In this document: positions 32,721 to 34,279 of the stretch, piece after piece
Numbering within the stretch: the stretch's first letter is position 1
Layout: each line of letters opens with the position of its first letter
IMG/VR virus record: IMGVR_UViG_3300025459_000003
Coordinates: 32,001-96,000 of that record
Strand: one strand, 5' to 3'
DNA from: a virus
Length of the DNA stretch: 64,000 nucleotides
Notes under the pieces: model-generated
Databases searched by the model: none
What the model saw: only the letters and a program-made list of their open reading frames with translations
Told to the model about the DNA's origin: nothing
Made by a program: the position numbers and the translations under genes

Positions 32721-34279
32721 ATTTCATCTACCCAATGAACTAGCGTGGTCTTTTGCCACTCCCATGCTGACAAGGGTCTGCTTTCGATTTCATCTACCCG
32801 ATGAACTAGATGGTCTTACCCATCCGGGAAGCTAAGGTTTCATCTGCCCGATGAACTGGAATGGTCTCCACATGGGCTGTCGGGCGCAGCCTTGCGGCTT
32901 CCGTTTCATCTATCCGATGAACTGGGATGGTCTCCGTCACTTTGGGGGCGACGCAGCCACTCAAACACGTTTCATCTACTCGATGAACTGAAGTGATTTC
33001 CACCAGCGTGTCACAGGCTGTTGCACGCCACGAAATTTCATCTACCCGATGAACTGGAATGACCTTTACCTTACCGCTAGCAGCATTCGTTTCATCTACC
33101 CGATGAACTAGGGTGATCTTCACCGATTGGGGAACTCTGAACTATCCACCTGGAGTTTCATCTACCCGATGAACTGAGACGGTCCCCACCGAGTGAATCC
33201 TTCGCCAACAGCCCTCAACTGTTTCATCTATTCAATGAACTGAGGTGGTTTCCATTGGAGCAGGCGCAAGCATTCGTCAAATTTCATCTATCCGATGAAC
33301 TGGAGTGGTCCGTACTGAACAGCAAGGTCATGGTTTCATCTACCCGATGAACTGAGGTGATTTTTGCTGCAGCGTGAATTCTCTGGACTTTCATCTATTC
33401 AATGAACTGGGGTGGTTTTCGCCACAGCGTGAATCCCATGGACATGGACATGGTTTCATCTACTCGATGAACTGGGGTGGTCTTATTAAATGGAGAAACG
33501 GTGCCACGAGCTTGAAGAGTTTCATCTGCCCGATGAACTGGGGTGGTCTCCACCACGATGGCGTGCTCGCATCGCCGGTACGTGGTTTCATCTACTCGAT
33601 GAACTAGGGTGGTCTTCACCGATTGAGGAACTCTGGACTATCCACCTGGAGTTTCATCTACCCGATGAACTAGGGGAGTCTTCACCGAGTCCGCTGTTCT
33701 AACCAACCGAGCTATGGTTTCACCTATCCGATGAACTAGGGTGGTCTTCACCTGCTCTTCGAGTTCTTCCCCCGGATGAGCTGTTTCACCTATTCGATGA
33801 ACTAGGGTGGTCTTCACCAATCGGCAGGCAGTTGACATTTCCCAAGGAGTTTCATCTATCCGATGAACTAGGGTGGTCTTTACCTTTACACCATTGACCA
33901 CTGGTCGATCTGCGTTTCACCTATCCGATGAACTAAGGTGGTCTTCACCTTGGCCCCGTGTATCCCGTGGGCCCTATCGGTTTCACCTATCCGATGAACT
34001 AAGGTGGTCTTCACCTGCAGGCCATCCGGCTGGAACTCGGGCGGCGTTTCACCTATCCGATGAACTAAGGTGGTCTTCACCAGGGACGTTGTCGAGGTTC
34101 TTGTTCGAGTGGTTTCACCTATCCGATGAACTAAGGTGGTCTTCACCATCCCGTGGTGTCGACGGCAATCGAGTTGTGTTTCACCTATCCGATGAACTAA
34201 GGTGGTCTTCACCGACGGTCGCCGCCGCCGTGGGCGTCGCCGTGTTTCATCTACCCGATGAACTAGGGTGGTCTTCACC
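32721..34279 (-). CRISPR. CRISPR array: 25 repeats of 36 nt (GGTGAAGACCACCYTAGTTCATCGGRTAGRTGAAAC), 24 spacers, mostly 30 nt
   Basis: 66-nt period; repeats degenerate toward 32721; 3' GAAAC end; the hairpin UUCAUC/GGUGAA needs a G-U pair, which is possible only on the minus strand. Confidence 0.95.

Follow-up and report, generated by a model that had tools for sequence, protein, structure and literature searches.

RNA-guided binding without cutting is found in type IV-A CRISPR systems, which use the helicase DinG as an accessory factor, and in TldR proteins, the nuclease-dead relatives of TnpB; in both, binding silences genes of competing elements or of the host. Binding of DNA by Cas12m proteins is likewise PAM-dependent and not followed by cleavage, and protection comes from their action as roadblocks (PMC11013384, PMC10442227), while their processing of pre-crRNA is independent of RuvC (PMC11013384). 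Huge phages are described as having arrays that lack adaptation genes and include spacers directed at the structural genes of other phages (Al-Shayeb et al. 2020, PMC7162821); for 'dCas14', one of their small type V effectors with impaired catalysis, repression in place of cutting has been proposed (PMC7162821). Targets were accepted in that study with at most one mismatch over more than 24 bp, and links with two or three mismatches were drawn as weaker ones (PMC7162821).

The locus described here lies in a window of 64,000 nucleotides that covers bases 32001–96000 of a linear, 157,656-bp IMG/VR virus record (hereafter G000); positions refer to this window unless another contig is named. As in the huge phages (PMC7162821), the compact CRISPR-Cas locus of a large phage lacks adaptation genes and includes a spacer that points to a structural (tail-fibre-like) gene of another phage, and, as in 'dCas14', the effector lacks catalytic residues, suggesting repression over cleavage. 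Unlike in the published cases, the only link found here has three mismatches, the array is a long one of about 25 repeats, and for none of its other spacers is a target known. Measured against the limit of one mismatch, this spacer, which encodes a collagen-like motif, adds a weaker case to a published phenomenon.

With type V-M, the locus shares the best PADLOC and PDB-profile matches of its effector, which are to Cas12m (PDB 8hhl, 23vw), a repeat with two stems, a single effector gene beside the array and a non-canonical RuvC site, and interference by binding would be expected here as well. Unlike in type V-M, however, the effector has 859 aa instead of about 600 aa, its similarity to Cas12m is restricted to the C-terminal RuvC/TNB region, its catalytic triad reads D-K-T where the characterised ones are D-E-D, H-D-D and N-D-D (PMC11013384, PMC10442227), a gene for a large helicase-like partner is conserved beside it, and the system is encoded by a phage. 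RNA-guided binding for silencing, with the target left uncut, would also be the likeness to type IV-A and TldR. Yet the proteins encoded here have no sequence relationship to the Csf proteins of type IV-A, the type IV DinG profile gives only a marginal PADLOC match to the helicase-like protein (E 0.008), and TldR uses long omega-type RNAs rather than CRISPR arrays.

If our reading of the locus holds, it is a case of a large phage from the environment that directs a binding-only type V effector against a relative's fibre gene, and the array shows the fate of guides when it cannot be renewed. More unusual than the spacer are the enlarged Cas12m-like protein with its D-K-T site, the conserved helicase partner and the frozen array.

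The array and its direction of transcription

The CRISPR array (32721–34279, minus strand) consists of about 25 direct repeats of 36 nt, regularly set at a period of 66 nt, and of unique spacers of similar length, typically 30 nt. Five of the repeats (33914–34213) are identical; toward 32721, in the distal half, repeats become degenerate and several spacers are shortened. The collagen spacer occupies 33950–33979, between the identical repeats at 33914–33949 and 33980–34015, and is the fifth from the cas-proximal end. The plus strand of these 30 nt reads TTGGCCCCGTGTATCCCGTGGGCCCTATCG and the guide, its reverse complement with a single occurrence in the window, reads CGATAGGGCCCACGGGATACACGGGGCCAA. 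As the initial annotation had stated, this guide translates to IGPTGYTGP. The peptide, three G-X-Y triplets, is read in frame 3, and the guide is a real spacer of the array.

We infer that the minus strand is the transcribed one from three kinds of support, namely repeat folding, the position of the array in homologous systems and the repeat ends of those systems. Both repeat variants form two hairpins as minus-strand RNA (−9.8 and −10.0 kcal/mol); as plus-strand RNA, the modern variant no longer keeps both. Through the T-to-C change in this variant, the minus strand still pairs, as G-U, where the plus strand has a C-A mismatch. In two homologous systems (L153 and L155), the array lies downstream of the effector gene on the same strand, and their repeats, read in gene orientation, end in a 6-bp stem with a 5-nt loop followed by AC, as do the repeats here in minus orientation. 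The Cas12m-like gene, 3.7 kb upstream of the array, is also on the minus strand and thus on the strand of the putative crRNAs. For the collagen spacer, the repeat at 33980–34015 would provide the 5′ handle of the crRNA, the second of its two minus-strand hairpins (UUCAUC-GGAUA-GGUGAA, then AC) directly abutting the spacer at the 3′ end of the repeat. Because of this orientation, the guide would correspond to the sense sequence of a collagen-like reading frame and pair with the template strand of the DNA.

Between the array and the nearest gene lies a leader region (34280–34484, minus strand) with a strong stem-loop terminator. Its 15-bp, G+C-rich stem (34343–34376) lies between an A-run and a T-run and resembles a two-way terminator, in which case the array would depend on read-through or on a promoter of its own no more than about 60 nt away. 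Rfam returned no family for the CRISPR locus. Two pairs of spacers are near-duplicates (33125–33154 and 33621–33650; 33369–33387 and 33424–33452), and in the first pair the likeness includes the flanking repeats, with 90% identity over 106 nt (33089–33194 versus 33585–33690), which points to segmental duplication inside the array.

The same 23 spacers recur in the same order in nine independent contigs from different samples (L124–L132), and the only differences are in two contigs, in each of which one spacer is replaced by another of the same length. In all nine, the collagen spacer keeps its fifth position. Since independent contigs carry identical spacers, the array is frozen rather than renewed; a search for Cas1 on the contig found none.

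An enlarged Cas12m-like effector and its partner

On the minus strand, the genes for the 859-aa effector, a 1045-aa helicase-like protein and a 102-aa protein are followed by the terminator-like stem and the array. The effector gene (37954–40533) is an open reading frame of 859 codons for which gene callers prefer 850 aa with a start at 40506. PADLOC assigns its product to Cas12u1 (1.8e-11), with a further match to Cas12f; type V-U1 is now named V-M. An exhaustive HMMER search recovered 53 remote homologs of 690–850 aa with 27–30% identity, and a profile built from 17 members of this family matched the Cas12m structures 23vw_A (1e-33) and 8hhl (Cas12m2, 1e-17). The homology to Cas12m covers the RuvC/TNB core in the C-terminal third of the protein; no N-terminal similarity to Cas12m was detected, and in neither size nor N-terminal half does the protein resemble the compact Cas12m effectors of about 600 aa. 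Two other searches, one with peptide patterns for relatives in IMG/VR and one with a word-index protein search, yielded no relatives and the effector itself, respectively.

In the alignment, the first catalytic Asp of RuvC is kept (AGLDLRW), while the Glu of RuvC-II is replaced by Lys (VVIKNM) and the Asp of RuvC-III by Thr (KKTENAA); most homologs have D/E/D at these positions. Because of these two replacements, the effector is expected to bind its target without cutting. We describe it as Cas12m-like in action rather than as a member of the Cas12m family, since its size and N-terminal half depart from those of Cas12m and the D-K-T site is uncharacterised.

The helicase-like protein (1045 aa; 34790–37927, minus strand) ends in a class I methyltransferase domain (Methyltransf_8/11, aa 900–1037). 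Another phage-like contig (L153:6001-11700) encodes a homologous effector of 795 aa with an intact D-E-D triad, followed by an 844-aa helicase-like homolog without a methyltransferase domain and by an array of 10 repeats; the two helicase-like proteins are 23–33% identical. As effector and helicase-like protein are paired both there and in the window (34790–40533), the pair is a conserved module and possibly an undescribed type V variant. Both genes are intact open reading frames, identical or near-identical across more than 70 contigs; those carrying the effector come from JGI, ENA, Logan and NCBI, and the longest of them reaches 250 kb. The 102-aa gene (34485–34793, minus strand), the last before the array, matches no known family and is called in all contigs of the population.

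Matches on the phage's own genome

The window contains a collagen-like tail-fibre gene of the phage itself (8029–10041, plus strand; 670 aa; Pfam Collagen 1.7e-12, PHROG tail fibre families 1.8e-46), and the collagen-like proteins of this phage match PHROG tail fibre and tail spike families as well as Pfam Collagen. The 23/30 match of the guide to 8939–8968 in this gene, which the initial annotation had put forward as the best in the window, is real, and by hand count six of its seven mismatches fall on third codon positions, and the seventh turns Y into F. Other sites equal or exceed it, however: 8474–8503 also reaches 23/30, and a Hamming scan of the whole contig found 24/30 outside the window, at 156591–156620 of G000. 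In the same scan, the other spacers scored 19–21/30, except for the G+C-rich leader-proximal one with 23/30.

As a sign of specific homology, the in-window match carries no weight, and we rejected it as such. Collagen-like 30-mers taken from unrelated viral contigs score 22–25/30 against genes of this kind, so that 23/30 reflects collagen periodicity and G+C-rich codons. The fibre gene at 8029–10041 is not a credible target.

G000, about 49% complete according to CheckV, breaks off 137 bases into another collagen-like gene (157520–157656 of the contig). With the exact sequence of the preceding 477-aa protein, we recovered sister contigs that run 10 kb past this end. In these, the interrupted gene continues to a length of 737 aa, includes a tail-spike-like domain (L134:11463-13676) and is followed by a ClpB-like AAA gene, a gene for a CCA-adding enzyme and a gene of more than 4200 aa. 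Neither in the 157.7-kb contig nor in the recovered 10 kb does the guide match anything above 24/30; over the 737-aa gene and the rest of the 10 kb its best score is 23/30. Nor is the peptide IGPTGYTGP encoded anywhere in the 168 kb of own phage sequence seen. In a peptide-level scan of all spacers against G000, the relative G001 described below and L134, a full 9/9 match was obtained for IGPTGYTGP only.

Searching for a target elsewhere

The exact 30-mer of the guide is absent from IMG/VR, and no target with one mismatch or none was found in IMG/VR, JGI metagenomes, 185,579 prokaryotic species genomes or GenBank phages, the IMG/VR and JGI scans being ones that may omit records close to this genome. 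A DNA pattern for any coding of IGPTGYTGP returned 110 viral stretches, which makes this a common motif. When the guide was scored against all of them, a single outlier emerged, a 27/30 match with an exact run of 22 nt, which is shared by G001 (317 kb, 99% complete) and G002 (237 kb), both of them contigs of a single phage, and was also seen in two further contigs of this phage. Among 241 million JGI metagenome records, the 22-mer is contained in a single one, again the 237-kb contig, and it is missing from all 185,579 species genomes. A pattern kept exact over the 13 PAM-proximal bases and left free at third codon positions beyond them found nothing in the species genomes or IMG/VR.

A BLAST search of the whole array against GenBank phages gave nothing, nor did the 22-mers of three other spacers in IMG/VR. 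One spacer is tRNA-like (33687–33716), and its 22-mer has no exact match in IMG/VR. Compared with the complete genome G001 by BLAST and Hamming scan, only the collagen spacer rises above shuffled controls (27 against a shuffle maximum of 23). As no other spacer matches this genome above noise, and none of the three tried matches IMG/VR, phage targeting by the array as a whole is unproven. None of the homologs obtained for the C-terminal region of the fibre protein of G001 has the motif in the right context. The initial annotation had proposed to derive the PAM from exact hits; with no exact target found, no PAM can be derived, and the one 27/30 site is preceded by GGCC on its 5′ side, which is not T-rich. 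Under the definition used for huge phages (a phage target of more than 24 bp with at most one mismatch; PMC7162821), the best match of 27/30 falls short; its three mismatches place it among the weaker links of two to three mismatches, a score that this motif also attains by chance.

A relative with a near match in its fibre gene

The 27/30 site lies within a 1532-aa collagen-like gene of G001/G002, and the mismatched positions of the guide are 2, 5 and 8, each of these three differences being a synonymous change at a third codon position. G001/G002 and G000 are collinear over at least 12 kb with 33–66% amino-acid identity. The 1532-aa gene is preceded by the same neighbours as are the terminal collagen-like genes of G000, and the central domain of its product is about 30% identical to that of the 737-aa fibre-like protein past this end. 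The G-X-Y triplets are thus read in frame in a gene that is collagen-like by Pfam Collagen and has a domain in common with a fibre-like protein of our phage, the PHROG tail-fibre matches being those of the latter phage's own proteins. By this sequence evidence G001 is a relative, though not a close one, as its G+C content is 54% versus about 62%. The effector was sought in G001 and G002 and is absent from both. Contigs of both phages are found in ENA assemblies with neighbouring accession numbers and in JGI metagenomes, which we take, from their Ga numbers, to be peatland samples; this suggests that peat is a habitat common to both.

How much weight the score itself can bear was judged with two sets of controls. 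Against the collagen genes of G001, at least 27/30 was reached by six of 2799 unrelated GXY 30-mers, by none of 133 sites with the same motif and by none of 111 30-mers from the phage's own collagen genes. Database-wide, however, the picture is different: when 155 IMG/VR sites encoding the motif were used as pseudo-spacers, their best match in an unrelated locus, defined as such by flank identity, was usually 26–28/30. As 30-mers encoding IGPTGYTGP commonly find such a best match in unrelated contigs, 27/30 alone is not significant, and we rejected it as strong evidence. What argues for a relative as the source is where the match lies. The only clear relative accounts for about three of the 155 motif sites, and mismatches distributed at random over the free positions would cluster within the first 8 nt in about 2% of cases; we put the chance of such a location at roughly 2–5% and rate the evidence as a whole as suggestive, at about the 1–5% level, rather than as proof. 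The proposal that the guide fits a homologous gene in a relative is therefore supported insofar as the best match anywhere is in a syntenic relative, but it has no exact target to its credit, and scores of 27/30 are common by chance.

How the guide may be used

Our preferred reading, which we hold with moderate confidence, is that the guide was taken from the collagen-like fibre gene of a clade-mate phage and serves a binding-only effector. The source of the spacer would have been a tail-fibre gene in another large phage of that clade, and the spacer would now be inherited within a fixed array. Transcribed from the minus strand, the array would be processed to crRNAs with the 3′ repeat hairpin as their handle, and these would load the Cas12m-like effector, whose zinc finger and RuvC fold are kept while two of the three catalytic residues are gone. 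In the rival's fibre gene, the sense guide would pair with the template strand, and the complex, bound without cutting, would block transcription or replication of the rival in co-infection, possibly aided by the helicase-methyltransferase partner. The phage's own fibre genes would be spared, because they differ from the guide at six positions or more. With respect to the G001 site, the three mismatches within the 8 PAM-proximal nt probably block binding today, and three synonymous differences near this end would fit a target that has escaped or diverged.

The claim that a related phage is the target, in competition between phages, thus finds backing in a collagen-coding sense guide with its best match in a relative, but not in an exact target, and any competition would have to act by binding rather than cutting, since the effector lacks two RuvC catalytic residues. 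A bolder form of the same reading, which we put forward only tentatively, is that hard-wired, inherited guides, a nuclease-dead Cas12m-like protein and a helicase-methyltransferase together exclude sibling phages in co-infection by silencing or marking their tail-fibre genes. If this were true, the three synonymous PAM-proximal changes in the relative would be the footprint of escape, and the locus would document an arms race of phage against phage, fought by binding-only CRISPR at a receptor-binding gene.

A guide of the same rival-phage origin may, alternatively, have outlived its use, the array being beyond updating and its targets drifted or escaped, so that the guide is now idle. Such a relic would be in keeping with several of the findings above, i.e. 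no Cas1 found on the contig, spacers that are identical in nine contigs, degenerate repeats and truncated spacers in the distal half of the array, the lack of an exact target even in JGI peat metagenomes and a nearest sequence with three PAM-proximal mismatches. The collagen spacer itself shows no such decay, however: it lies inside the block of five identical, intact repeats and is unchanged in every population contig recovered, from several samples. The effector and its partner are, moreover, intact reading frames that hardly vary across more than 70 contigs, and databases cover just a fraction of peat viruses; an idle guide seems to us rather unlikely.

Less probable still is a host target, in which a bacterial collagen-like gene, e.g. 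for a surface or spore-coat-like protein, would be silenced during infection. Spacers of huge phages against host genes are known, some of them in systems with non-cutting effectors (PMC7162821), and a binding-only effector would suit regulation. Yet neither the 22-mer nor the pattern of 13 PAM-proximal bases occurs in the 185,579 species genomes, among which the host may perhaps be unrepresented, and the only metagenome record with the 22-mer is a phage contig. A match to a host collagen-like gene, named at the outset as an observation that would speak against a phage target, was thus not found among these genomes. As to the host itself, a 751-aa open reading frame (11822–14077, minus strand) ends in a PEP-CTERM sorting motif (Pfam E 6e-5), a hint that the host may bear an exosortase.

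Regulation of the phage's own fibre expression, by a dead effector directed at an exact protospacer in the unassembled half of the genome, we consider improbable. A frozen array with a nuclease-dead effector does have the look of a regulator, the contig breaks inside a collagen-like gene, and the collection scans may have omitted records close to the phage's own genome. But the gene that continues past the break offers the guide no more than 23/30, the motif peptide is missing from all 168 kb seen, and the collagen-like genes of the 99%-complete relative, three in two regions, equal in number the three seen in our phage and have domains in common with them. On these grounds, a self-target is unlikely, with about 90 kb or more of the genome lying outside the sequence scanned. 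The initial expectation that the spacer does not target its own genome is borne out over the 157.7 kb (at most 24/30) and the next 10 kb (at most 23/30), while a small probability of the opposite is left by a contig that is only about 49% complete.

That the collagen-like reading is an accident of a short, G+C-rich spacer from an unrelated sequence is hardly credible in view of three in-phase GGN codons with Pro and Thr at X/Y positions, identity in all nine amino acids to a motif that 110 viral stretches and G001 encode, and a score against G001 that, alone among the spacers of the array, exceeds its shuffled controls.

Returning to the fibre genes of the two phages, we observed that their proteins form a mosaic family, in which N-terminal, central and C-terminal modules have been shuffled between paralogs, as seen at 238291–240585 and 245620–249438 of G001, in the window gene at 8029–10041 and in the 737-aa gene of L134.
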